From NCBI GenBank assembly GCA_002025865.1, contig MWOR01000207.1:6106-70105 (forward strand): a stretch of 64,000 nt of DNA, read 5' to 3'. Below the pieces are notes generated by a model. The model saw only the letters and a list, made by a program, of their open reading frames with translations. It was not told the DNA's origin and did no database searches. This stretch comes from Prochlorococcus sp. HOT208_60m_813I02 (lineage in GTDB: Bacteria > Cyanobacteriota > Cyanobacteriia > PCC-6307 > Cyanobiaceae). Below, piece after piece: positions 1,867 through 61,147 of the stretch. Position numbers and translations under genes: made by a program. Position 1 is the stretch's first letter, and each line of letters begins with the position of its first letter.

Positions 1867-2520
1867 ATGGATTATCTAAAAGAAATTAATTGTAAGGAGA
1901 TTTTCAAAAAGGCTTATGAAAATCGTTACACCTGGAAGAATAATTTTCATGGCTACCAAGGTAAATGTATTTTCTTGACTAATAATAATATTCATAAAGG
2001 TGACTTCGTATTAGGTAAAGACTTTAAACCAAATATTCAAAATATAGAAGATGAAAAAGTTGTTAAAAGTATTGCCTCTCAGTTATTTGAAGTTTGTATA
2101 CATAGGGTAAAGAGAGAATTTGAATCAGTGCACTCAGAAAATAATTTTAATTTACTGAAAAATTCTGAAAGTGGGATTGAAATGGGCGTTTCAGGTAAGA
2201 ATCAAGGTGATAAATATAGAGTTAAAAATAACTGTATTAATATGGTCTACAGAAAAATTCATGGAACTATAATAGAAATTTTTGTTGAAGAATTTTTAAA
2301 TACAGGAACTGGTTCCCTTAGTAAAAAATATAGTAGTCAACAAATTGATCCAGATACATTTGAGACAAATTCTCGGAAATTAGAATACGAGGATGAATTT
2401 TTAAATATGGGTAAAGACGATTATTGGATATTAAATTCGAGGACAATAAAATACTTAAACCAAAATAAAGAAGAAGAAACACAAAAGTTTGTCTTCGAGG
2501 ATCTATGCTTATTAAATTAG
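1867..2520 (+). CDS. DUF3386-family protein
   Basis: FKKAYENRYTW..F.GYQG and QLFEVCIHRVKREF motifs typical of this cyanobacterial family. Confidence 0.75.
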   Translation: MDYLKEINCKEIFKKAYENRYTWKNNFHGYQGKCIFLTNNNIHKGDFVLGKDFKPNIQNIEDEKVVKSIASQLFEVCIHRVKREFESVHSENNFNLLKNSESGIEMGVSGKNQGDKYRVKNNCINMVYRKIHGTIIEIFVEEFLNTGTGSLSKKYSSQQIDPDTFETNSRKLEYEDEFLNMGKDDYWILNSRTIKYLNQNKEEETQKFVFEDLCLLN

Positions 2521-2525
2521 TTTTA

Positions 2526-2771
2526 TTATTCAACCAATCTAAACCCTTTATCAAGTAGTTTTTGATATAAGAGTCTTGCTCTAAAAGCTAGAATTTGCTC
2601 TTCATTTTCATTACTAATTACATGAAAGTAATTATTATCTAACTTATTTTTGCTAAAGCATACATTTGCTTCTCCTAATCTTAAAGTCCAGTTCTCTTCT
2701 TTTGCTAAATGTTGATTAGGGCCAAGATCCCAAGGACATTTTTCGGGATATTTTTCTCTTTTAGAACCCAT
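2526..2771 (-). CDS. Hypothetical protein
   Basis: 81-aa ATG ORF with plausible composition. Confidence 0.6.
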   Translation of the reverse strand: MGSKREKYPEKCPWDLGPNQHLAKEENWTLRLGEANVCFSKNKLDNNYFHVISNENEEQILAFRARLLYQKLLDKGFRLVE

Positions 2772-2880
2772 ATGATAAATTTTAACTACCCAATATTAGT
2801 AAAAAATTAAAAGTATGGCTATTAAAAATAGTTGATAACTTTTTCATAGAGTTTTTGATTAATGCTATGCAATTAAAAAT

Positions 2881-3543
2881 TTACTCTTTGGTTGCGATTA
2901 AACAATAAAATGGGTCTTTATTAAAAAAATTAAAGATATTAAGTGCTGGTTCAGTAAACTTTTTGATAATTTTTGGCTCATTAAATCCGTTTGAAATTAA
3001 TACTTTTCTTACATATTTGACCCTCCCTTCTTCAGTAGATGAAGTCCATATGTTAGGAGCTTTATGCCAAAATGCTCTGTTTGAAAAAGCAATAATAATC
3101 TTACCCTTTCTGCTTAATATTCTCGCAATTTCTTTGGTTAAATTTTCTGGATATTGTAAATATTGCCATGCGGCTACCATCAAGCAATAATCAACGCTTT
3201 CTTTCTCTAGTGGAATTTGTTGACTTAAATTAAAATTTTGTATCCAAAAAGAATCAAAAATTTTGTTTTTTTCAAGTTCTTGTTTATTTAAACCATGTCC
3301 AATAACTTGTTTATATTTTTTCGCTTTAGGTAAATAACTATCCCAACTGGACATTAAATCAAGAACTGTTGAATAATTATCAATTTCTCTTTCATATAAA
3401 TCTGATAGATTTTGCCTGAAGTTTGCATCTAGATGATAAACAAATTTTGGATCAGAATAAAATTCTTCATCATTACTCTCATCGAGTTTTTCCCTTTGAT
3501 AATTATTTAAGACTTCCAAAGCAACTAAATTTTTAATGAACAT
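2881..3543 (-). CDS. Class I SAM-dependent methyltransferase-like protein
   Basis: VLDLMSSW, GHGLNKQEL..N and FSNRAFW.KA motifs; true start may be slightly downstream. Confidence 0.8.
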   Translation of the reverse strand: MFIKNLVALEVLNNYQREKLDESNDEEFYSDPKFVYHLDANFRQNLSDLYEREIDNYSTVLDLMSSWDSYLPKAKKYKQVIGHGLNKQELEKNKIFDSFWIQNFNLSQQIPLEKESVDYCLMVAAWQYLQYPENLTKEIARILSRKGKIIIAFSNRAFWHKAPNIWTSSTEEGRVKYVRKVLISNGFNEPKIIKKFTEPALNIFNFFNKDPFYCLIATKE

Positions 3544-3670
3544 TTCAAATCTAGTAAAAAGAAATTCTAATTGTGCATTGGGAATTTTTTTTCATTTAAT
3601 AAATTAAAAATTCTCATTAAACCTAGACATCTATTCAAAAAAAGTTAAATTATTAATTAATGATTTAATA

Positions 3671-3844
3671 ATGATGATTGAGTTCAAAAGGAGCAAAAAA
3701 AACAGATCTAAAAATGCTCTTTTCAATCCTTATAAAAACGGGATAAGTTCATACGATATGGCATATCTTTCATCAAAAAGAAAGTTAAAAAATAAAACTG
3801 TTTATCTAGAAAATGAATCTAAGAAGGATTATCTTGTTGCATAG
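3671..3844 (+). CDS. Small basic hypothetical protein (57 aa), not in the ORF track
   Basis: Translated by hand: MMIEFKRSKKNRSKNALFNPYKNGISSYDMAYLSSKRKLKNKTVYLENESKKDYLVA*; stops 2 nt before the MIF start. Confidence 0.5.
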   Translation: MMIEFKRSKKNRSKNALFNPYKNGISSYDMAYLSSKRKLKNKTVYLENESKKDYLVA

Positions 3845-3846
3845 AG

Positions 3847-4179
3847 ATGCCTTATATTAATGTTTCGACTTCAGCAAAACTAAATGATAAAGGTAAATTA
3901 CTCGAAGAAATTTCAATTCTTATTTCATCTTTAACTAAAAAATCAAGAAGTTTTGTTATGGCAAAAATAGATGATAATTGCCAAATGTACTTTGATGATA
4001 AGACACCTTCTTGCTTTTTAGAAATCAAATCAATAGATTCTCTAAATCCCTCAGAAATGGCAAAGCCAATATCAGACTTTGTATATGAGAAAATGGGGAT
4101 CCCAATAGATAGGATTTATATTTCTTTTGAGGATGTGCCAGCTTCATTGTGGGGTTGGAATGGAAGAACATTTGGTTAA
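3847..4179 (+). CDS. MIF/phenylpyruvate tautomerase family protein
   Basis: N-terminal catalytic Pro (MPYINVSTS) and C-terminal RIYISFED...WGWNG.TF. Confidence 0.9.
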   Translation: MPYINVSTSAKLNDKGKLLEEISILISSLTKKSRSFVMAKIDDNCQMYFDDKTPSCFLEIKSIDSLNPSEMAKPISDFVYEKMGIPIDRIYISFEDVPASLWGWNGRTFG

Positions 4180-4200
4180 GAATTTTTAGATATAAAGCTA

Positions 4201-4587
4201 ATGGAAATAAATAAATTAGTCGATTTAAATAATCTTAGAACTGCACCTCAATTAAGTAATTGGCAAGAAAAAAAACTTTTAGAGGAACTAGAAGCAAATA
4301 TTTTTCATGCAGACTGGATAACAATAGGCATAATGGCACCTAGTGATAGTGAAGCTATTGAAGCATTACAATCAATTTCTAAGAAATATTCCACAATTAA
4401 ATTTGGGAATCTTGGGTCCCTTCATGCTGATGGAGGTGTTTTTTTAAAAGCTAATCAAAAAACTAGTAATGTTTTTGTCAGATCTGAAAATGGTCTTGGA
4501 GAAGGAATTTTAATAACATGTCAGTATGACCAAGGTGCTAAAGAATCTAGTACTTTTGGACCAATGCCATTAGATTTTTTTACATAA
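4201..4587 (+). CDS. DUF1824-family protein
   Basis: DWITIGIMA, GGVFLKANQ, TFGPMPLDFF. Confidence 0.8.
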   Translation: MEINKLVDLNNLRTAPQLSNWQEKKLLEELEANIFHADWITIGIMAPSDSEAIEALQSISKKYSTIKFGNLGSLHADGGVFLKANQKTSNVFVRSENGLGEGILITCQYDQGAKESSTFGPMPLDFFT

Positions 4588-4743
4588 TTAATACCTCATT
4601 TATTTTTATTAAAGATCTAATTAAATTACAGTTTTATATCAGATGATATTTTGGAGAACTTGGATTTAAAAATATTCTTTACTTTAAAGCTTTGTTATTA
4701 TGGCTACTGGCATTGATCTAAATTTTTTCATTATTTTAATTTA

Positions 4744-5619
4744 ATGTTTTTTCAGGATATAATTCAAAATTTAAATAATTTTTGGTCAGATGAAGGTTGT
4801 TTGATTATGCAGCCATATGACACCGAAAAGGGTGCTGGAACAATGAATCCGCATACTTTTTTAAGGGCCATTGGACCAGAGCCTTGGAGTGTTGCATATG
4901 TAGAGCCATGTAGAAGACCTACAGATGGGCGTTTTGGCGATAACCCAAATAGGGCGCAACATTACTTTCAATATCAGGTAATTATTAAACCTTCACCAGA
5001 AGGAATCCAAGAAAAATATTTGACATCTTTAGAATCTCTTGGAATTAATCCTAGAAATCATGATATAAGATTTGTGGAAGATAATTGGGAGTCTCCAACA
5101 CTTGGTGCCTGGGGTGTAGGTTGGGAAGTTTGGTTAGATGGCATGGAAGTTACTCAATTTACTTACTTCCAGCAATGTGGGGGAATAGATTGTAATCCAA
5201 TCCCAATTGAAATTACTTATGGGCTTGAGAGGATTGCAATGTTTTTGCAGGATAAGGAAAGTATCTGGGAATTAAGTTGGAACAAAGATTTGAAATATAG
5301 CGATATTTGGCTTCAATTTGAAAAAAGTCAATGCTCTTATAATTTTACCGAATCTAATGCAGACAATCTCAGGAAATTATTTGAAATTTATCAAGCTGAG
5401 GCAATTTCTTTAATAGAAAAGAAATTAACTTACCCTGCGCTTGATTTTGTTTTGAAATGTAGTCATACATTTAATCTTCTTGATTCTAGAGGTGTGATTT
5501 CGGTTACAGATCGGGCACAATATATTGAAAAGATTCGAAAATTAGCAAGAGAAGTTGCTGCATCATGGGTAGATGAAAGAGAATCTCTTAACTTTCCATT
5601 AATAAAAAAAATAATCTAA
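4744..5619 (+). CDS. glyQ: Glycine--tRNA ligase alpha subunit
   Basis: [48 protein letters not shown]. Confidence 0.98.
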
Positions 5620-5644
5620 ATAATATTTATTCTTAAAACTTAAT

Positions 5645-5660
5645 TGTATAAAAAGTTACA
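5645..5660. promoter_or_regulatory. NtcA box upstream of porin
   Basis: TGTA-TAAAAAGT-TACA is a perfect GTA-N8-TAC; a second near-box TGTT-N8-TACA at 5692-5707 abuts a TATAGT -10 at 5709-5714. Confidence 0.6.
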
Positions 5661-5739
5661 CCGGTCTGAATCTTATATTTCTTTCCTTTTTTGTTACGCT
5701 CGATACAGTATAGTTACCCAAATTATTTGGGCTACTTTA

Positions 5740-5747
5740 GTGTGAGG
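5740..5747 (+). promoter_or_regulatory. Putative Yfr1 sRNA target site overlapping the porin RBS
   Basis: GTGTGAGG 4 nt before ATG is complementary to CCUCACAC of the conserved Yfr1 motif; Som porin mRNAs are established Yfr1 targets. Confidence 0.65.
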
Positions 5748-5751
5748 TTAA

Positions 5752-7008
5752 ATGAAACTCTTCCAACAAATGTTGGTGGCAGGGGCATCCTTGAGCTTAT
5801 TAGCTCCAGTTGTTGCTCAAGCTTCCGACGTTGTCAACTTAGAGGAAATGAATAGCTACTCTCGTAGCCAAACAAAATCTTCAAGACTTGACAGTAATAC
5901 ATTCATTAACGAAGTTAGTGAAGATCTTGCAATCCTTAAGGGTCGTGTTGATGGCCTTGAGGTCAAACAAAATGAATTTGAAGCTGGTGGCTTTTCCGAT
6001 ACAACAGTAATGAATGGTAAGGCAATCTTCGATATTGGAGCAGTTGAAAACTCTTCTGGTGATCTTAGCGAAGCTGTCGGATTCCAATATACTTATCAAT
6101 TAAATCTGAATACCAGTTTTACTGGAGACGATGATTTATATGTAAGATTAAAAACTGGTAATGCTACTGATGTATTTTCCAGTAAGACATATGGCACTTA
6201 CCTATCTTCATCTAACGGAAATGATGACACTATAAAGGTTGATAAAATTTGGTATTCATTCCCTGTAGGGGAAAACAATACTTTTTGGATTGGTCCAAAA
6301 ATCGAAAATTACTATATGCATGGTGCGACACCTTCTATTTATGCACCAATTACAAAACAATTTAAACTGGGAGGTAATGGTGCCGCATATGGAGCGAGTA
6401 CTGATTCAGGTATAGGTTGGGCTTACAAAGGTGATAATGGCTTCTCTTTAAGCTCAAACGTTGTAAGTAAACAGAATAAAACAACTAAGGGATTCTTAAC
6501 TGATGAATCTAAGACTAACTGGTCTACACAAGTTGCTTACACCACCGATACTTATCATCTTTCACTTATAACCGCTTTAAAGTATAACGGATGGACAGAT
6601 TCCTACTACACAACTTCATTAGGTAAAGCTCGTCCCAATGGGAACAGCACTAACTATGGTTTAAGAGGATACTGGAGACCAGATAGTGAAAGTCAGGCAG
6701 TTCCTGAATTATCTGCTGGTTATGATATTTCAACTGTTGAAGGACAAGAAGCAGATACCGATTCTTACTTCGTAGGATTAACTTGGAAGGATACATTCCA
6801 AGCTGATGATAAAATTGGTATCGCTTTAGGTCAGCCTCAAACAGCAGATACAGACACAGAAACACCATTCACATGGGAAGCTTATTACTCTTATAAGGTT
6901 AATGATTCAGTTACTGTAACTCCTGCTATTTTCGGGGCTACAGATAGAACTGGTACATCTGGTGTAGACATTACCGGAGCAGTTGTTCAGACAACATTTA
7001 AATTCTAA
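5752..7008 (+). CDS. som: Cyanobacterial outer-membrane porin (Som/iron-uptake porin family)
   Basis: MKLFQQMLVAGA signal peptide, coiled coil LAILKGRVDGLE, FSDTT, LNLNTSFTGDDDLYVRL, C-terminal TTFKF. Confidence 0.9.
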   Translation: MKLFQQMLVAGASLSLLAPVVAQASDVVNLEEMNSYSRSQTKSSRLDSNTFINEVSEDLAILKGRVDGLEVKQNEFEAGGFSDTTVMNGKAIFDIGAVENSSGDLSEAVGFQYTYQLNLNTSFTGDDDLYVRLKTGNATDVFSSKTYGTYLSSSNGNDDTIKVDKIWYSFPVGENNTFWIGPKIENYYMHGATPSIYAPITKQFKLGGNGAAYGASTDSGIGWAYKGDNGFSLSSNVVSKQNKTTKGFLTDESKTNWSTQVAYTTDTYHLSLITALKYNGWTDSYYTTSLGKARPNGNSTNYGLRGYWRPDSESQAVPELSAGYDISTVEGQEADTDSYFVGLTWKDTFQADDKIGIALGQPQTADTDTETPFTWEAYYSYKVNDSVTVTPAIFGATDRTGTSGVDITGAVVQTTFKF

Positions 7009-7023
7009 ATCCTTATTTAGTTT

Positions 7024-7054
7024 AAAAAAGGGTATCAAGTAAGATACCCTTCTT
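7024..7054 (+). terminator. Terminator hairpin between the porin and the convergent ORF
   Basis: AAGGGTATC-loop-GATACCCTT inverted repeat. Confidence 0.65.
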
Positions 7055-7093
7055 AAAAATTATTAACGCTTAATTTAAATTAGGCGTTTTTTT

Positions 7094-7321
7094 TTACCAA
7101 CAATTTTCGCCTTCACCAATCGGGATGCAAACACTAGATTTTGCAGCTTCATCTGCCAATTTTTGAGCATCTTTATCCAAAATAAAATCAGCGTCAATCG
7201 ACATATCTGTATTCCATTCTTTGAGCCCACCTAAATCTTGTTCTTCTGCATGAGCAGATGATGAGATCGCTAGTGCACTTGTAGCTGCAAGAAATAGAGA
7301 AATTGAACTTTTTTTATTCAT
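7094..7321 (-). CDS. Small secreted hypothetical protein with C-terminal Cys pair
   Basis: Sec signal peptide ending AHA; C-terminus CIPIGEGENCW; same strand as and just downstream of piuC. Confidence 0.75.
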   Translation of the reverse strand: MNKKSSISLFLAATSALAISSSAHAEEQDLGGLKEWNTDMSIDADFILDKDAQKLADEAAKSSVCIPIGEGENCW

Positions 7322-7394
7322 TTATGGAAAATTATTCTTTAATCACTTTAGTAATTTTAGAGTTAATTCCCCAGATGATGTATAAAATGATCCA

Positions 7395-8060
7395 TTAATT
7401 ACCTAATATTCTTAATAAGTTTGAATAGGATTTGAAAATTAAATCAACTTCATCCGACATACCATACTTTGCTAAGACTCCTCTTGCTCCTGCATCAAGA
7501 TCGAATAAATATTCTCTTTCTACTGGTGACTTAACATAACTTTCAATCCAGCCTACGCATACTAATCTTTCACCATTAATTACTTTACTTACTGAATGCA
7601 AGTAAGAACTTGGATATATAATAATTTCTCCAGCATTTAACTTGAATCTCTCTTCCGAATTCATTGTTTCAATAATTAATTCACCACCTCCATAAAGATC
7701 TTTATTTGTTAGCGATAGAGTGAAAGATAAATCTGATCTCCCTGAAGACATATATGGATTATCAATATGTCTTCCATAATTCATATTTTTTGATGATTTT
7801 GTAAACATTATTCCGTGGATTATTTTTGGCAAAGAAAAACTTTTTATTAATTGGTTTGAAAGGATCTTTTTATGAATTAATTGCGAATTTTTTTTTGATA
7901 CTTCAGAATTTCTATTTAATTGTAAATTATTTTTTACCATTGAGGCATGGCTGCCAGCAGTTTTTTTACCATCTTCCCAATCTTGAGTTGCCTCTTCTAC
8001 TTCTTTCTTTATAAGGTTGATTTCTTCAGCATTTAGTAACTGATGGGTTAAATAATTCAT
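7395..8060 (-). CDS. piuC: PKHD-type Fe(II)/2-oxoglutarate hydroxylase (PiuC/YbiX)
   Basis: WEDGKKTAG, YGRHIDN, RSDLSFTL, GGEL, HSVSKV..GER; start reassigned to MNYLTHQ at 8060 to avoid overlap with idiA. Confidence 0.9.
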   Translation of the reverse strand: MNYLTHQLLNAEEINLIKKEVEEATQDWEDGKKTAGSHASMVKNNLQLNRNSEVSKKNSQLIHKKILSNQLIKSFSLPKIIHGIMFTKSSKNMNYGRHIDNPYMSSGRSDLSFTLSLTNKDLYGGGELIIETMNSEERFKLNAGEIIIYPSSYLHSVSKVINGERLVCVGWIESYVKSPVEREYLFDLDAGARGVLAKYGMSDEVDLIFKSYSNLLRILGN

Positions 8061-8161
8061 TTCTAATATAAAAAATGATACATCTTTGTGTATAGAAGAT
8101 CGCTTTTGAGGTTTTTCAGTTTTGATAAGTATAAAGTAACCATAGATACTATTTTGAAAAA

Positions 8162-9184
8162 GTGCAAAAACTAAAAAAACTATTTTATACAGCACTAACA
8201 TGTACATTTTTAATGAATGTAAATGTACCTGTTAATTCAACAGAAAAAGAAGTCAAAGTTTATTCGGGTAGACATTATAATACAGATCGAAGTGTTTATA
8301 AAAAATTCGCAGAAGAAACAGGAATTAAAGTTAGGCTTATAGAAGCAGCAGGAATATCTTTAATTGAAAGATTGAAAAGAGAAGGAAAGAATGCTCAAGC
8401 AGATTTGATATTGCTAGTAGATGCAGCGAGAATCACTAACGCAGCGAAAGCTGGATTACTTCAACCAATAACTTCTTCTAATTTAGAAAATGATGTTCCT
8501 GTTGGGTTAAAAGACCCTAATAAGGAGTGGTATGCATTAACAAGGAGAGTAAGAGTTATGGTTGCCAATCCAAAAGTGGTTGATATCAACAAGATTAATG
8601 ATTACAGTGATTTAGCTGATCCAGCCTTAAAAGGTAAAGTATGTTTAAGAAATAGGAAAAGTCCATATAATCAATCTTTAGTCGCCAATCAAATAATTAA
8701 AAAAGGTGAATTAGAAACTAAAGCTTGGTTAGGCGGAATGATTACAAATGTTTCCCAACCATTTTTCCCAGGTGATATTTCAATAATTAGAGCAGTTTCT
8801 AAGAAAAAATGCGGAGTAGGAATTGTTAATCATTATTACGTTGCAAGAATGTTAGCAGGTGTTAATGGAAGAAGAGATGCTTTATATGCGAAAAAAACAA
8901 AGGTCCTTACTCCTAATCCAGCACACGTCAATATTAGTGCAGGTGGTGTTGCAAAATATGCAACAAATAAAAATGAAGCAATTCAGTTGCTTGAATTCTT
9001 AGCATCTCCAGAAGGAAGTAAAGGTTTAGCTGCTCCAACTTTTGAACATCCTTTGAAGGAAGTTAATCAGAATGAAATAGTAAAGAACTTTGGAGAGTTT
9101 GTACCTGATAGTGTAACTGTAGAAGACCTTGGAGAAAAAAATTCATTAGCTATTAAATTGATGAAAGATGCAGGCTGGAATTAA
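8162..9184 (+). CDS. idiA: Fe(III) ABC transporter periplasmic binding protein
   Basis: VYSGRHY, YNQSL, VNHYY iron-ligand motifs and HVNISAGG (FutA/IdiA/AfuA family). Confidence 0.93.
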   Translation: MQKLKKLFYTALTCTFLMNVNVPVNSTEKEVKVYSGRHYNTDRSVYKKFAEETGIKVRLIEAAGISLIERLKREGKNAQADLILLVDAARITNAAKAGLLQPITSSNLENDVPVGLKDPNKEWYALTRRVRVMVANPKVVDINKINDYSDLADPALKGKVCLRNRKSPYNQSLVANQIIKKGELETKAWLGGMITNVSQPFFPGDISIIRAVSKKKCGVGIVNHYYVARMLAGVNGRRDALYAKKTKVLTPNPAHVNISAGGVAKYATNKNEAIQLLEFLASPEGSKGLAAPTFEHPLKEVNQNEIVKNFGEFVPDSVTVEDLGEKNSLAIKLMKDAGWN

Positions 9185-9246
9185 AAATTAAGATAATTTT
9201 ATAGTTCATAATTTTCCCAATATTAAGTGCATACTTATAAACAGGC

Positions 9247-9331
9247 GGAGAGGTGGCTGAGTGGTCGAAAGCGAACGACTCGAAATCGTTTAATAGGCAA
9301 CTATTCGTGGGTTCGAATCCCACCCTCTCCG
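9247..9331 (+). tRNA. tRNA-Ser(CGA)
   Basis: GGAGAGG/CCTCTCC acceptor stem, anticodon arm AACGA-CT-CGA-AA-TCGTT, long variable arm, GTTCGAATC T-loop, G discriminator; CCA not encoded. Confidence 0.96.
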
Positions 9332-9575
9332 TAAACTAATAGTTTCTAGGAGTCCAAAAATAAAATAAGAGGGCATTTATTGTCTCTCTTCGAGTATATG
9401 CACCTTTCTTTCCACAAAGTCGATTAAGCGATTTTAACTCCTGAATTATTTATACTCTTAATGTATTTAAAAAGATAGTTGTGACGAGTACAAAGCACTA
9501 ATTCTCGGGTATTAATACTCTATTAATTTCAATTGATTAGGAGGATAATGAAGTAGTAGAGATTAAGGAGGTTTT

Positions 9576-9734
9576 ATGAGATTCACCACTCCATTCACTG
9601 TCCTAAGAAATGCAACTTCAGATATTTGGAAAATGCATGATTTTAATTATCATCTACCAAAAGATCCAAGACAAGATTATTGGGAAAAAGAATGCATAGA
9701 CCACCCAACAAGTTCTCATTGCAAACTTTATTAA
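9576..9734 (+). CDS. 52-aa microprotein with CP12-like C-terminal CxxxPxxxxC motif, not in the ORF track
   Basis: Strong RBS AAGGAGG; MRFTTPFTVLRNATSDIWKMHDFNYHLPKDPRQDYWEKECIDHPTSSHCKLY*; hairpin follows at about 9760-9785. Confidence 0.75.
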   Translation: MRFTTPFTVLRNATSDIWKMHDFNYHLPKDPRQDYWEKECIDHPTSSHCKLY

Positions 9735-9827
9735 AAAAATTAAATTTAAGATATTAATTAAGTCCCTTTATTAGGGTCTTTCCCTCTAAGTGAGTAGATA
9801 TTCTGTGATTATAAAACTAGAGAAAAG

Positions 9828-10433
9828 ATGGCTTTTAATAATTTAATATCTAAAAATGAATGGCAATACATCCTAAGCGCATCTCTTTTACTTATAGTTT
9901 TTATACTTACAGATTTAATTGGAGTTATTGATAAAGAATATTTTTACTTTGTACCAAGATTAATTAGTGATCAACCTCATAGGATTTTTACATCAATCCT
10001 AATCCATGCAGATTTAAATCATTTATTAAGTAATCTTGGTGGAATAATTATCACTAGATATTTTTTGATGAGACTTGGAATAGAAAGTAGATTTTTTTAT
10101 CTGAAATTTATTTTAATTTGTTCATTTTTGAATTTTTTTATTATCTGGTTTTACGAAAAGATTTTATCGTACTTTCTTAATTTTTATCCCAACTATGCCG
10201 CTTTAGGATTTAGTGGAATAATTTATGCTTTATTTGGATTTTTACTCTTAGCATCTTTTTATGGAAAGAGTCACTTTTTAGGCAAAAAAATTGGTTTAAA
10301 ATCAAATTATGAAGTGCAAAAAATGTCAAAGACAATATGCCTTATAGGATTGATTTTCTCTTTTTTACCTGGAGTTAGTTTATTGGGCCATATAAGTGGA
10401 TTTATTGCTGGATGTTTTTTATTCTTGATCTGA
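9828..10433 (+). CDS. Rhomboid-family intramembrane serine protease
   Basis: H.DLNHLLSN, catalytic GFSG and GHISG; multiple TM helices. Confidence 0.88.
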   Translation: MAFNNLISKNEWQYILSASLLLIVFILTDLIGVIDKEYFYFVPRLISDQPHRIFTSILIHADLNHLLSNLGGIIITRYFLMRLGIESRFFYLKFILICSFLNFFIIWFYEKILSYFLNFYPNYAALGFSGIIYALFGFLLLASFYGKSHFLGKKIGLKSNYEVQKMSKTICLIGLIFSFLPGVSLLGHISGFIAGCFLFLI

Positions 10434-10692
10434 ATAAGATAATTCTTTATTGATCAAATTAATATCGTTAATTTGCTGTGCACCAAATTTTTTCTTTTAC
10501 TCTTTATTTTTAAATAAATCAATTTTGATATCAAAAGTAACCACTATTCCAATACTTATAAGCAATAATCCAATCGCAATTTGGGGAGAGGTAATACCAT
10601 AAAAATTTATTTTCAACTACCCTATCGAATCCATATCATTATCGATGAAAGATTGAGTAATATTAAATATTAATAAAGCAACATATTTAAAA

Positions 10693-40554: not shown

Positions 40555-41292
40555 TTAATTATCTAATAATTCAAATAATCTACTTATTAGAAGCTTTCTT
40601 TTTAAAAAAGTTTTATCAATATATTTTTTATTCTCTTCTTTTAAAATTTCCTGACCATTTAAGCCTAATCCTTTAAGGACAAACTCTTTATCTTCTTTAA
40701 TCCAGTTATTTATCATTCTCCCCGTTGTCTCTATATGGAATTGTAATCCGTAAGCAAAATTACCAATCCTAAAAAACTGTTCCTTACAACGCGCACTACT
40801 TGCAATGAGTACTGCTTTATCAGGTAATAAAATCCTATCTCCATGCCAATGCAGTACATGAAAAGGGTCTTGAAACAGTACTTTGAAGTCTTTAAACGAT
40901 TTATCTATAAAAATCTGAGACCATCCAATTTCTGGTAATGCTTTTGGAGGTGATCCAAATTTAAGAATTTCTACATCTCCTCCAGCCGCACTCGCAAGCA
41001 ACTGAGCACCTAAGCAAACACCGATTATAGGTCTCTCATTTTCTAATTCTTTTTTTATAAAATCTCTTTCTAACTTAAGCCATGGATATCTTTCGCTTCC
41101 AATATCTTTAACTCCCATTGGTCCACCCATAATTAAAATTAAGTCACCTTTTTTTGTTTGCGGCAGAGCATTTTTGTTATCTAAACGAATAATTTCTATT
41201 TTTAAATCTCTTTCTTTAGCAAATTGTTCAAAGAGACCTGGCCCCTCTATTTCTAAATGCTGAAGAACTAATAAGCGTCTTATTTCCTTCAT
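40555..41292 (-). CDS. Type 1 glutamine amidotransferase (GMP-synthase-like domain)
   Basis: MGGPM, GVCLGAQ catalytic Cys, HWHGD, QFHIE. Confidence 0.9.
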   Translation of the reverse strand: MKEIRRLLVLQHLEIEGPGLFEQFAKERDLKIEIIRLDNKNALPQTKKGDLILIMGGPMGVKDIGSERYPWLKLERDFIKKELENERPIIGVCLGAQLLASAAGGDVEILKFGSPPKALPEIGWSQIFIDKSFKDFKVLFQDPFHVLHWHGDRILLPDKAVLIASSARCKEQFFRIGNFAYGLQFHIETTGRMINNWIKEDKEFVLKGLGLNGQEILKEENKKYIDKTFLKRKLLISRLFELLDN

Positions 41293-41618
41293 TCACTTTC
41301 CATTATTTCAGCTGATTCAGAACAGACATTAACGCTAAACCACTTCATTGCCGACCATGTATCTTCTTGGTATGTGCCTGCTGCAATACTTACAAAACAA
41401 TCATTTTCATACCAACTTCGATAACTGGGAGTTACTCCCGTTCCTTTTAAACTATTTTCTAAGCCTTTTCCATATTTTTTAATAACAAGATTTAAAGCTT
41501 CATTCTCAATTTCTCTTTGCTTCTCATCAGCAAAACCTCCTAGTGGAACAAAAAAAAGAATTGATGCAATAAGTAAAAGTATCATTGAGTCTTTTTGTTT
41601 ATATGTAGTTAATTTCAT
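41289..41618 (-). CDS. Secreted hypothetical protein
   Basis: Signal-peptide-like N-terminus and two Cys; overlaps both neighbours (operon). Confidence 0.7.
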   Translation of the reverse strand: MKLTTYKQKDSMILLLIASILFFVPLGGFADEKQREIENEALNLVIKKYGKGLENSLKGTGVTPSYRSWYENDCFVSIAAGTYQEDTWSAMKWFSVNVCSESAEIMESE

Positions 41619-41889
41619 ATCGATTAATTAATTTTTTAAAATCATTAACTCTATTTTGTCCATTCTTTAATGGCCTTGAGGAGTCAAGAACGGCTGCACA
41701 ACATAATTGCCAACAAGAATTTTCATCTAGTCCTAATTTCTTACATATATTTTTTGGGGCTTTGATAACAGTATTTATTTCTGCGATATGTTGAGTAGTT
41801 TCCCATAATTCTCCTTCTAGAAAGTCAATTTCAATACTTGATAATAATTCTGTAGCAACGTAATCCTTAATTAGCTCAGTTAATTCCAC
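41599..41889 (-). CDS. Hypothetical protein
   Basis: GTG ORF; AP..IC..L.L.....W..C.A motif shared with 58278-58577. Confidence 0.7.
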   Translation of the reverse strand: MELTELIKDYVATELLSSIEIDFLEGELWETTQHIAEINTVIKAPKNICKKLGLDENSCWQLCCAAVLDSSRPLKNGQNRVNDFKKLINRYEINYI

Positions 41890-41945
41890 GATATTTAATT
41901 AAATCAGAGAAGTTAAATCATCTCTTAGTATTTGTATAGCAAGAT

Positions 41946-42260
41946 AAAAAAAAAGGAGCTAGTTTCTACCTCATCTTGAATCTCCTATCGAGATAAAGAG
42001 ACTACATCATTTCGTATTGATCAAGTTTGGTTTTTAATTTTGTTGCTTGTTTAATCAATGACAAAGCTTCTTTTCTGCCAGTTGAATTATTAGCCTGGAC
42101 TATAAGATCTGCGTATTTCTTTGCGATTTTTTTTTGCATAATTTAAAATATTTAAATACCGTTTTTGAATCTTGCAACTAGCGAGTCGCAACCAGAAGTA
42201 GATAAGGAGTCAACGGTAAAAACCTCAGAGTCAACAAAATTGGAACGGGTTAACTCATGT
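41946..42260 (-). ncRNA. Structured, probably dual-function RNA carrying the 45-aa ORF
   Basis: Three helices in the 5' leader, two with G-U pairs only on the minus strand (42256-49/42235-28, 42218-12/42163-57, 42191-84/42179-72); NtcA box and -10 upstream; U tract at about 41946-41954. Confidence 0.55.
42002..42139 (-). CDS. 45-aa basic helical peptide, not in the ORF track
   Basis: MQKKIAKKYADLIVQANNSTGRKEALSLIKQATKLKTKLDQYEMM*; clear paralog at 60196-60330. Confidence 0.75.
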   Translation of the reverse strand: MQKKIAKKYADLIVQANNSTGRKEALSLIKQATKLKTKLDQYEMM

Positions 42261-42295
42261 TTTTAATTTATAACCAATTAATAAAAAAGCTGTTG

Positions 42296-42309
42296 GTATC
42301 TACGATTAC
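42296..42309 (-). promoter_or_regulatory. NtcA box, activator geometry
   Basis: GTA-TCTACGAT-TAC; 23 nt from a minus-strand TATAAA(T) -10 at 42272-42267. Confidence 0.65.
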
Positions 42310-42388
42310 ATTGTTTTCAAACCCTGATTTAATTTATAGTTATCCATGAATTGGATTGAAATTTTTCAATTATCTTTTTAATTCAATT

Positions 42389-42422
42389 AAAAAAAAAGGG
42401 GGTTAAAAACCCCCTTTTTTTT
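42389..42422. terminator. Rho-independent terminator of the riboswitch-controlled gene
   Basis: A9-GGGGGTT-loop-AACCCCC-T8. Confidence 0.85.
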
Positions 42423-42440
42423 ATTAAAAGACCTAATTTA

Positions 42441-42770
42441 CTAATTACCTAAACCTAGAGGAGCCCAAAGAGTTGCTTCAGAACCTATAACAGGGACAAC
42501 TCCTGTAGTTTTTGCATTAGAAACTTTATTTTTAACAATAGGAGTATCTTGTTCTCCTAAAGCTGCCCATAAAGTTGATTGATGAGCGATAACTGGTTGA
42601 ACTTTTAATGGTTGAGATTGAAAAGAGGGCTTTTGGGTTCTTACAAGTTGGACTCCAAGAGAACCAAAAATAAATGCCCCAAGAAAACCTGCAAATACAG
42701 CAGTAATATTGTTACTACTTACTGAGGTAGATACGTTATTAGACATAATAGTTATGTGACTAAATTTCAT
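42441..42770 (-). CDS. Uncharacterised single-TM protein with duplicated PVI-x4-TLWA-x-LG motif, downstream of a glutamine riboswitch
   Basis: TM segment FAGFLGAFIFGSLGVQLV; repeats PVIAHQSTLWAALG and PVIGSEATLWAPLG; alternative start at 42746. Confidence 0.8.
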   Translation of the reverse strand: MKFSHITIMSNNVSTSVSSNNITAVFAGFLGAFIFGSLGVQLVRTQKPSFQSQPLKVQPVIAHQSTLWAALGEQDTPIVKNKVSNAKTTGVVPVIGSEATLWAPLGLGN

Positions 42771-42774
42771 TTTT

Positions 42775-42833
42775 GACTGAAGTCCCCGTTCCTTGGCTTC
42801 AATCTTAATGCGGCTCGTAAAACGAGATGAACG
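42775..42833 (-). ncRNA. Glutamine-II (Downstream-peptide) riboswitch
   Basis: P1 CGUUC/GAACG, P2 CUCGU/ACGAG, CGCA linker, 8-bp pseudoknot GAUUGAAG/CUUCAGUC. Confidence 0.85.
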
Positions 42834-42837
42834 TTTA

Positions 42838-42864
42838 TGTAGTCTACGCTACATTTTAACTATA
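42838..42864 (-). promoter_or_regulatory. NtcA box overlapping the predicted TSS (repressor geometry) plus TATAGT -10
   Basis: TGTA-GTCTACGC-TACA at 42838-42853; minus-strand TATAGT at 42864-42859. Confidence 0.7.
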
Positions 42865-42931
42865 AGTTTAATTTAATTTACAAGATGTTAATGGCAATAC
42901 AAAAACTTATTAAAAAATAAGAAATTAAATT

Positions 42932-43072
42932 TTAAAGTGAAGAAAATATATTTGAATTTTTTTGAGTAAAAAATAATTGATTATTTTCATAATTGTTTGC
43001 AGAGTAACTTTCAGAAACAACAGTTCCATGAGTTACCCCAAAAATAAAACCAAGTAAGATCGCTAAACGCAT
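42932..43072 (-). CDS. Possible 46-aa secreted microprotein
   Basis: MRLAILLGFIFGVTHGTVVSESYSANNYENNQLFFTQKNSNIFSSL*, translated by hand. Confidence 0.3.
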   Translation of the reverse strand: MRLAILLGFIFGVTHGTVVSESYSANNYENNQLFFTQKNSNIFSSL

Positions 43073-60973: not shown

Positions 60974-61086
60974 TTTAGGAAATATTAAAACCTTATTTCT
61001 ACTATCTATTAAATATTTATTTTTTTAAAAAAATTTAGTAAAAATTACTCTCGCGAAATTTTTTTAAAGATGTTATTGTTCGATAA

Positions 61087-61147
61087 CGTTCATCCAAGTT
61101 TATATCTCTGGACGCATGAAATGGGAATAGGGAACGGGATTCTCATT
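61087..61147 (+). ncRNA. Glutamine-II (Downstream-peptide) riboswitch
   Basis: P1 CGUUC/GAACG, P2 CCA..UGG, ACGCA linker, pseudoknot AAUGGGAA/UUCUCAUU; extended -10 TG-T-TATTGT at 61071-61079. Confidence 0.87.

Follow-up and report, generated by a model that had tools for sequence, protein, structure and literature searches.

A structured leader with an NtcA-type promoter in Prochlorococcus shares its 5' loop with an expressed small RNA and is complementary to the glutamine-II riboswitch core

In Synechocystis and other cyanobacteria, the small RNA (sRNA) NsiR4 is produced from an NtcA-type activating promoter and uses an exposed conserved seed to repress gifA (IF7) and pirA (PMC6212724, PMC9196836). 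Prochlorococcus is reported to lack NsiR4 (PMC9196836). The analysis presented here concerns a 64,000-nucleotide (nt) stretch of Prochlorococcus sp. HOT208_60m_813I02 (contig MWOR01000207.1, positions 6,106 to 70,105), hereafter the window, taken from a high-light (HL) assembly of 1.5 Mb in 281 contigs that is 85% complete. Its subject is a minus-strand unit with an NtcA-type promoter, a structured leader opening with a hairpin termed P1, and a 45-codon gene, located beside a glutamine-II riboswitch. The P1 loop carries the seed CCCGUUCC (42249-42242), which is exactly complementary to GGAACGGG, a sequence present in each of the window's two glutamine-II riboswitches, and the surrounding motif recurs in the loop of a stand-alone sRNA encoded elsewhere in the genome.

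The mechanism considered below would, among known systems, most closely resemble NsiR4, without implying relatedness. The likeness lies in the NtcA-type activating promoter, the exposed conserved seed, and the feed-forward lock under nitrogen limitation, with the glutamine synthetase inactivating factor regulon as the proposed target here. NsiR4 binds an ordinary 5' untranslated region (UTR), whereas the proposed site here is the ligand-binding core of a riboswitch, and in the window the seed is carried by a protein-coding mRNA. Prochlorococcus small RNAs that have a dual function or encode a peptide, such as Yfr6, resemble the present leader in being short structured transcripts with a small conserved open reading frame (ORF) (PMC2518516, PMC6212724). 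In Yfr6, however, a glutamine-II riboswitch forms the leader, whereas the present leader is complementary, not homologous, to such an element. Yfr28 is likewise a clade-specific RNA of ~72 nt that responds to low nitrogen in HL Prochlorococcus (PMC7368042), but it lies between ftsQ and ftsZ (MED4 1262112-1262149), has another sequence lacking CCCGUUCC, and is reported to target ppc, ftsZ, and minE.

The riboswitch side of the comparison rests on structural work. The pseudoknot (PK) helix of glutamine-II, described as its 'functional heart', forms the glutamine pocket, has GGAACGG as its 3' strand, and can form between separate RNA molecules in vitro (PMC6698751). In the two-piece riboswitch of Huang et al. 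(2019), a CGUUC-bearing RNA forms the PK helix with GGAACGG in trans in vitro. This engineered split aptamer still binds glutamine, whereas a complete pocket also needs the P1 stem-loop and the linker strand, which natural RNAs carrying the seed do not have; they would therefore block the aptamer instead of rebuilding it.

The promoter of the window unit consists of a perfect GTA-N8-TAC palindrome at 42296-42309 on the minus strand (GTAATCGTAGATAC, or GTATCTACGATTAC in plus-strand reading) followed after 23 nt by a -10 element read from the sequence as TATAAA (42272-42267). From the distance to the -10, transcription is predicted to start at 42259-42261. A box ~22-23 nt from the -10 and centred near -41.5 conforms to class II-like NtcA promoters, and GTA-N8-TAC boxes number 15 in the window against 6.65 expected. 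Conservation was assessed by a DNA search over 121 genomes of the genus and alignment of the 50 loci recovered, all of which keep the box, the -10, P1, two further helices (P2 and P3), and the ORF. These loci form three paralog groups (identities 94%, 77%, and 74%), and segment conservation is expressed as identity between the group consensi. The GTA and TAC triplets are 100% identical and the -10 (TTATAAA) 90%, compared with 67% for the N8 and 58% for the spacer between box and -10. As the triplets and -10 are kept in all three groups while the N8 and spacer drift, an NtcA-type, activating promoter is supported, and the transcript would be expected to increase under nitrogen limitation.

P1 (42228-42256, minus strand) is an 8-bp hairpin in which GAGUUAAC (42256-42249) pairs with GUUGACUC (42235-42228) around the loop CCGUUCCAAUUUU, and it is predicted in minimum free energy (MFE) and centroid folds alike. 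The 12-nt motif AACCCGUUCCAA (42240-42251) holds the seed at 42242-42249. The remainder of the ~120-nt leader (42140-42227) comprises a linker, UGAGGUUUUU, P2 (42212-42217 with 42158-42163), P3 (42200-42203 with 42169-42172), a variable inner hairpin (42173-42199), and an A/U-rich tail. RNAalifold and pair counting over P1, P2, and P3 found 98.4% of cells paired and three compensatory pairs, and none of 500 shuffles attained the score observed, although the compensatory changes stem from few independent events. They include U:G to G:U (8 sequences) and U:A to C:G in P1, and G:C to U:A in P2 of one locus (L053); P3 is also supported by covariation.

The loop itself is unpaired in the consensus fold and 100% identical between the group consensi (36/36), against 92% for the P1 stems, which bear the compensatory change. 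An invariant loop on a covarying stem is what the preliminary description of this locus had asked of a functional hairpin. The linker is 93% and P2 and P3 100% identical, whereas the inner hairpin, with its own sequence and a different helix in each group, falls to 32%, and the less constrained segments together (spacer, variable hairpin, third codon positions) span 32-59%. Loop variants are confined to a few copies with other damage, namely P1-stem mismatches in L023, a P2 break and -10 change in L017, and altered conserved ORF residues in L028. A pseudoknot between CCGUU of the P1 loop and a downstream AACGG was considered and rejected, the double change in L053 compensating P2 instead. A two-state fold pairing the P1 5' strand with a second GUUGAYUC was likewise rejected, since no covariation supports it and the pairing fails in paralog group 3.

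No terminator was found between P1 and the ORF, and the leader continues through P2 and P3 to the AUG of the 45-codon ORF MQKKIAKKYADLIVQANNSTGRKEALSLIKQATKLKTKLDQYEMM (42002-42139, minus strand), which opens without a Shine-Dalgarno sequence. Identity between the groups at codon positions 1/2/3 is 79/93/59%, a coding signature. The 45-amino-acid (aa) protein matched no family or name in Pfam, NCBIfam, or the ESM-Atlas, and a homologue search returned 144 unnamed marine metagenomic relatives. Further copies of its C-terminal half, ~80% identical and without the leader, occur in many genomes of the genus (query positions 359-446), so the small protein is part of a larger paralogous family. Judging from the identity pattern between group consensi, the promoter motif, the ~120-nt leader, and the small protein gene are all evidently under selection. 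The leader, the ORF, and the adjoining riboswitch gene are all covered by contigs in the metatranscriptomes of four studies.

It is therefore with high confidence that this locus is described as an NtcA-activated promoter driving a minus-strand mRNA that opens with P1 and continues through a multi-helix leader into a 45-codon gene. The preliminary description, made from the letters of the window, had correctly placed the perfect NtcA box, the -10 at 23 nt, and the 5' hairpin, all of which withstood the analysis. Its proposal of a free sRNA did not, given the lack of a terminator after P1 and the passage of the RNA into a coding ORF. The leader with P1 is neither a stand-alone sRNA nor a member of any Rfam family. 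In a covariance scan of both strands from 41800 to 43000, the sole Glutamine-II (RF01704) match was the riboswitch at 42777-42836, and neither the leader nor its antisense matched any family.

The leader unit is unevenly distributed. Counted by its loop 13-mer, it is present in 31 of 68 high-quality genomes, or about 45% of HL genomes, with one to three copies per carrying genome, mostly in small-ORF islands. The 13-mer does not occur in MED4, a covariance-model search of 151 genomes from 64 genera found no copy outside the genus, and a phage collection yielded no cyanophage match. Members of two paralog groups have a glutamine-II unit within ~600 nt, arranged in tandem in one case and divergently in the other.

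The same seed is carried by a second RNA, identified in a search through 301 genomes of the family for GTA-N8-TAC boxes with GGAACGGG 30-60 nt away. This locus was matched in 17 of 17 genomes of the genus, while pattern matches in other picocyanobacterial genera stayed at control level; one match in genus g12 was rejected, as CCUGUUCC stands where CCCGUUCC should be. The product is a stand-alone sRNA of ~75 nt encoded outside the window, at C130:896-971 and C131:2193-2251 of the source genome, MED4 689153-689230(+), and NATL2A 1537151-1537219(+). HL copies have the full NtcA consensus TGTA-N8-TACA, a variable 22-nt spacer, and a TATTAAT -10. A 6-bp 5' hairpin with the 14-nt loop CCCGUUCCAAAGUU leads, through a brief unpaired stretch, to a terminator whose hairpin shows a compensatory exchange (A:U to G:C) and is followed by a U-tract; there is no ORF. 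The sRNA shares with the leader the motif AACCCGUUCCAA, its position in a 5' hairpin, and the NtcA-type box spacing; stems and downstream sequence differ. It also differs from the leader in standing alone with its own terminator and in being near-core, its exact 13-mer occurring in 77 of 92 high-quality genomes of the genus (84%).

The sRNA family extends beyond HL Prochlorococcus (g1) to a second genus, the NATL-type low-light I (LLI) clade (g60). There, a covariance model recovers the hairpin and loop with an unrelated GC-rich terminator, and the NtcA-type box reads GTA-N8-GTC at the same spacing. In divergent HL genomes the seed and box are retained while the stems change, and in supernumerary copies box and seed are lost together. 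A divergent sRNA-like paralogue in some HL genomes (for example L155, G114:C3:8149-8245) has a 7-bp hairpin, the loop CCGUUCCAAA, a different 3' hairpin, and half an NtcA box; G247:C1:1088024-1088120 is a covariance-model match to it.

Published data show that the sRNA is expressed from a defined start. An orphan transcription start site (TSS) was reported at MED4 689153(+) (PMC5607370, Tables S9-S11) and coincides exactly with the first base of the sRNA hairpin, the box lying 35 nt upstream of it, centred near -42.5. The raw counts in these tables were 337 and 601 under nitrogen deprivation at 12 and 24 h, compared with no call and 398, respectively, under replete conditions (PMC5607370). A non-coding contig at MED4 689140-689230(+) with 219 reads and a contig at NATL2A 1537151-1537219(+) have also been listed (PMC7368042, Tables S3 and S2). 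The inspection column is blank for both contigs although known Yfrs are labelled there. The sRNA, like the leader, for which the preliminary description had proposed a comparison with catalogued Yfr RNAs, matched no Rfam family, the Yfr families included. It is distinct from Yfr28 and is not listed in the 2008 Yfr table, and a literature search for the seed motif string returned nothing relevant.

The recurrence of one loop in two dissimilar RNAs bears on whether the P1 loop acts only in cis. It may be that P1 and the leader set the stability or translation of the 45-codon mRNA, with the loop serving as a protein site, part of a ligand fold, or a 5' protective hairpin, and that its complementarity to riboswitches is incidental. 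Several features fit such a role, as the leader is a continuous conserved multi-helix unit up to an AUG lacking a Shine-Dalgarno sequence, P1 is not followed by a terminator, and other unpaired segments (UGAGGUUUU and GAYUCCUU) equal the loop in conservation. In addition, ~1.7% of random genomic 13-mers contain eight consecutive nucleotides that complement one part or another of the source genome's five aptamers. However, the same 12-nt motif loops out in an ORF-less sRNA that is otherwise unlike the leader, so a role in the leader fold or ORF fails to explain its conservation. The leader also has no Rfam match, and the alternative fold proposed for it is the one rejected above. A purely cis-acting role is rated as rather unlikely. 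As the loop is common to a conserved, expressed, NtcA-boxed sRNA family, a sequence-specific role is favoured with modest confidence, and this probably involves base-pairing.

The best conserved candidate partner of the seed found is the PK 3' strand of the glutamine-II riboswitches. The preliminary description had noted the exact 8-mer complement in both riboswitches of the window, which is borne out at 42785-42792(-), within the aptamer at 42777-42836(-) (Rfam 64.9 bits), and at 61131-61138(+), within that at 61084-61146(+) (47 bits). It had termed this segment the P1 3' strand; the segment is equivalent to P1 of glutamine-I, but in glutamine-II it is named the PK 3' strand. The additional flanking pairing it suggested does not exist for either window riboswitch, where A:A and G:A mismatches occur, and amounts to a single A:U pair with AUGG-type copies elsewhere in the genome. 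A third, plus-strand riboswitch as a source of the 8-mer was ruled out by an Rfam E-value scan. GGAACGGG occurs four times in the window against 0.23 expected and 11 times in the whole genome against 5.4 expected, and in MED4, G221, and G192, each with four to five riboswitches, it is present in three to four of them. The chance of a 13-mer matching this shared core 8-mer is ~2e-5.

In a ranking of loop duplexes over all 33,375 segments of 120 nt, the riboswitches fell at -16.8 to -17.7 kcal/mol, within the top 45. When the ranking was limited to non-coding sequence (16% of the genome, with the trivial antisense of both seed-bearing RNAs removed), four of the five riboswitches were in the top dozen. 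With opening energies included, three ranked about 2nd, 4th, and 9th at -12.7, -11.1, and -10.1 kcal/mol. Duplex folding of the whole leader against whole UTRs was dropped as it gave long meaningless duplexes. In MED4, G221, and G192, every GGAACGGG outside riboswitches and the genes of seed RNAs sits in coding sequence (G-T-G codons). No such site is common to the three genomes, and only two recur in the source genome, one of them rpoA-like and the other in the 109-aa ORF that neighbours the leader. The strongest coding-sequence matches of the source genome, cysK and purF, were rejected as targets because complementarity is lost at synonymous sites elsewhere. This leaves the PK 3' strands as the sole conserved non-coding complements of the seed found.

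Pairing in trans with other targets has also been considered. Candidates are UUUGGAAYGG sites encoding E-x-W-N-G-R in some high-light-inducible protein (HLIP) genes and the ferrochelatase C-terminus, or sites that pair imperfectly. UUUGGAACGG and CCGUUCCAAA would form a 10-bp duplex, and this would account for the conservation of the A-run that follows the seed. All three such sites in MED4 use AAC. For Yfr28, the sites of action reported in metabolic genes lie in the coding region or at the 5' end (PMC7368042). The presence of the sRNA family in the sampled HL and NATL-type LLI clades fits as well. HL and LLI are the clades with expanded hli families. They are also sister clades, however, so the common distribution may reflect ancestry alone. 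There are only ~3 UUUGGAAYGG sites per genome, and the Asn codon is AAT in two of three in G221 and three of three in NATL2A, so perfect pairing at these sites is not maintained. The sites lie deep within coding sequences, and TTGGAACGG is unenriched relative to the control. On this evidence targets other than the riboswitches are considered unlikely.

If the riboswitches are the targets, the promoters on the two sides would have opposite regulatory signs. Four of the five riboswitch units in the source genome, the exception being the unit at 61084-61146, have an NtcA box over their start, as described for MED4 (PMC6212724). From its placement, this is predicted to be a repressing position, opposite in sign to that of the leader. 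For the window unit the GTA-N8-TAC lies at 42839-42852, directly upstream of the aptamer; boxes are similarly placed in C176, C64, and C221, and the -10 precedes the box in the copies read.

It is possible, though proposed here only tentatively, that NtcA-driven seed RNAs, namely the near-core sRNA and the leader P1, invade the PK of glutamine-II riboswitches in trans and keep the regulon off under nitrogen limitation. NtcA, active at low nitrogen, would raise sRNA and leader RNAs with CCCGUUCC(A) exposed in their hairpin loops, where it would pair with (U)GGAACGGG, the PK 3' strand that builds the glutamine pocket. The resulting 8-9 bp would out-compete the 5 bp that the aptamer forms with its 5' CGUUC strand. 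Genes downstream, IF17-like ones among them, would thereby be kept off, reinforcing NtcA repression of the same genes. The window element would act as a dual-function leader, supplying extra seed copies in ~45% of genomes.

A number of observations weigh against this proposal. The match between loop and riboswitch was noticed post hoc, and the duplex is only 8-9 bp long. The invariant seed flanks (5' AA; 3' AAA or AAU) are not explained by riboswitch pairing. The expectation of the preliminary description that riboswitch leaders would rank first held approximately among non-coding sites, but genome-wide several coding-sequence sites stand above them. GGAACGGG is invariant for the aptamer's own reasons, so its constancy says nothing about co-evolution with the seed, and the variant PK GGACGGGG, present once per genome, has no matching seed variant (CCCGUCC) in its own genome. 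In terms of distribution, the leader is absent from more than half of HL genomes, the sRNA was undetected in three of the five genomes lacking the exact 13-mer, and in some HL genomes neither seed RNA appears to be present. Synechococcus and other sampled low-light clades have the riboswitch, yet no seed RNA was found in them. As regards expression, TSS 689153 was also called in a replete sample (398 vs. 601 at 24 h), and the tables thus point to a modest induction at most. The metatranscriptome contigs break at 42219/42238, where the paralogs share sequence, and hence give no transcript start, end, or strand for the leader.

The same complementarity could operate in the reverse direction, in that the very abundant glutamine-II leader RNAs would use GGAACGGG under nitrogen-replete conditions to titrate the sRNA and the mRNA of the 45-codon gene or to lower their stability. 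The adjoining riboswitch gene has a very high summed contig depth in one metatranscriptome, though depth is a poor measure of level and cannot rank expression, and two leader paralog groups adjoin riboswitch units. As the seed is at the 5' end, far from the start codon of the ORF, an effect on translation is not obvious. This direction of control is regarded as very unlikely.

Several neighbouring features complete the description of these loci. The gene behind the window riboswitch (42441-42770, minus strand) encodes a 109-aa single-pass membrane protein with no Pfam or NCBIfam match, and it is therefore not DUF4278 or IF17-like; the very high summed contig depth noted above, a weak indicator of level, belongs to this region and to a single marine metatranscriptome. 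Between it and the NtcA box of the leader, a symmetric hairpin at 42390-42425 (A9-GGGGG-loop-CCCCC-U9) looks like a bidirectional terminator parting the two minus-strand units. The second riboswitch, at 61084-61146, has two differences over 60 nt from the 'Prochlorococcus sp. RS01' sequence of the crystal structure (PMC6698751).

Homologous signal-peptide proteins of 102-109 aa (30% identity, E 8e-10) are encoded at 41289-41618(-) in the window and at L062:969-1277(-) in MED4. Their presence beside the leader gene and the sRNA alike hints at an old segmental duplication linking both loci. Upstream of the sRNA in MED4, a very strong orphan TSS at 688866(+) precedes an unannotated 49-codon ORF beginning MNKTQEQLEKLREV (L062:630-779). 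Its raw counts rise from 3889 to 10627 at 12 h and from 2158 to 6883 at 24 h under nitrogen deprivation, an increase of 2.7-3.2x (PMC5607370).

Prochlorococcus is thought to trade protein regulators for RNA, and is reported without NsiR4, IF7, and PirA yet has several glutamine riboswitch units. Whatever the target of the seed, the genus contains a conserved, expressed, and uncharacterised sRNA family with a mapped start, as well as a 45-codon gene whose structured leader is conserved, both outside Rfam and the Yfr lists compared. If the proposed pairing is correct, the seed RNA family would link the NtcA/2-oxoglutarate layer of nitrogen control with the glutamine riboswitch layer. It would then represent an 'anti-riboswitch' sRNA occurring in nature, and would supply marine picocyanobacteria with the functional counterpart of NsiR4 that has been missing there. 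Such an override of a riboswitch would be mechanistically new, as would a target site within the ligand pocket.

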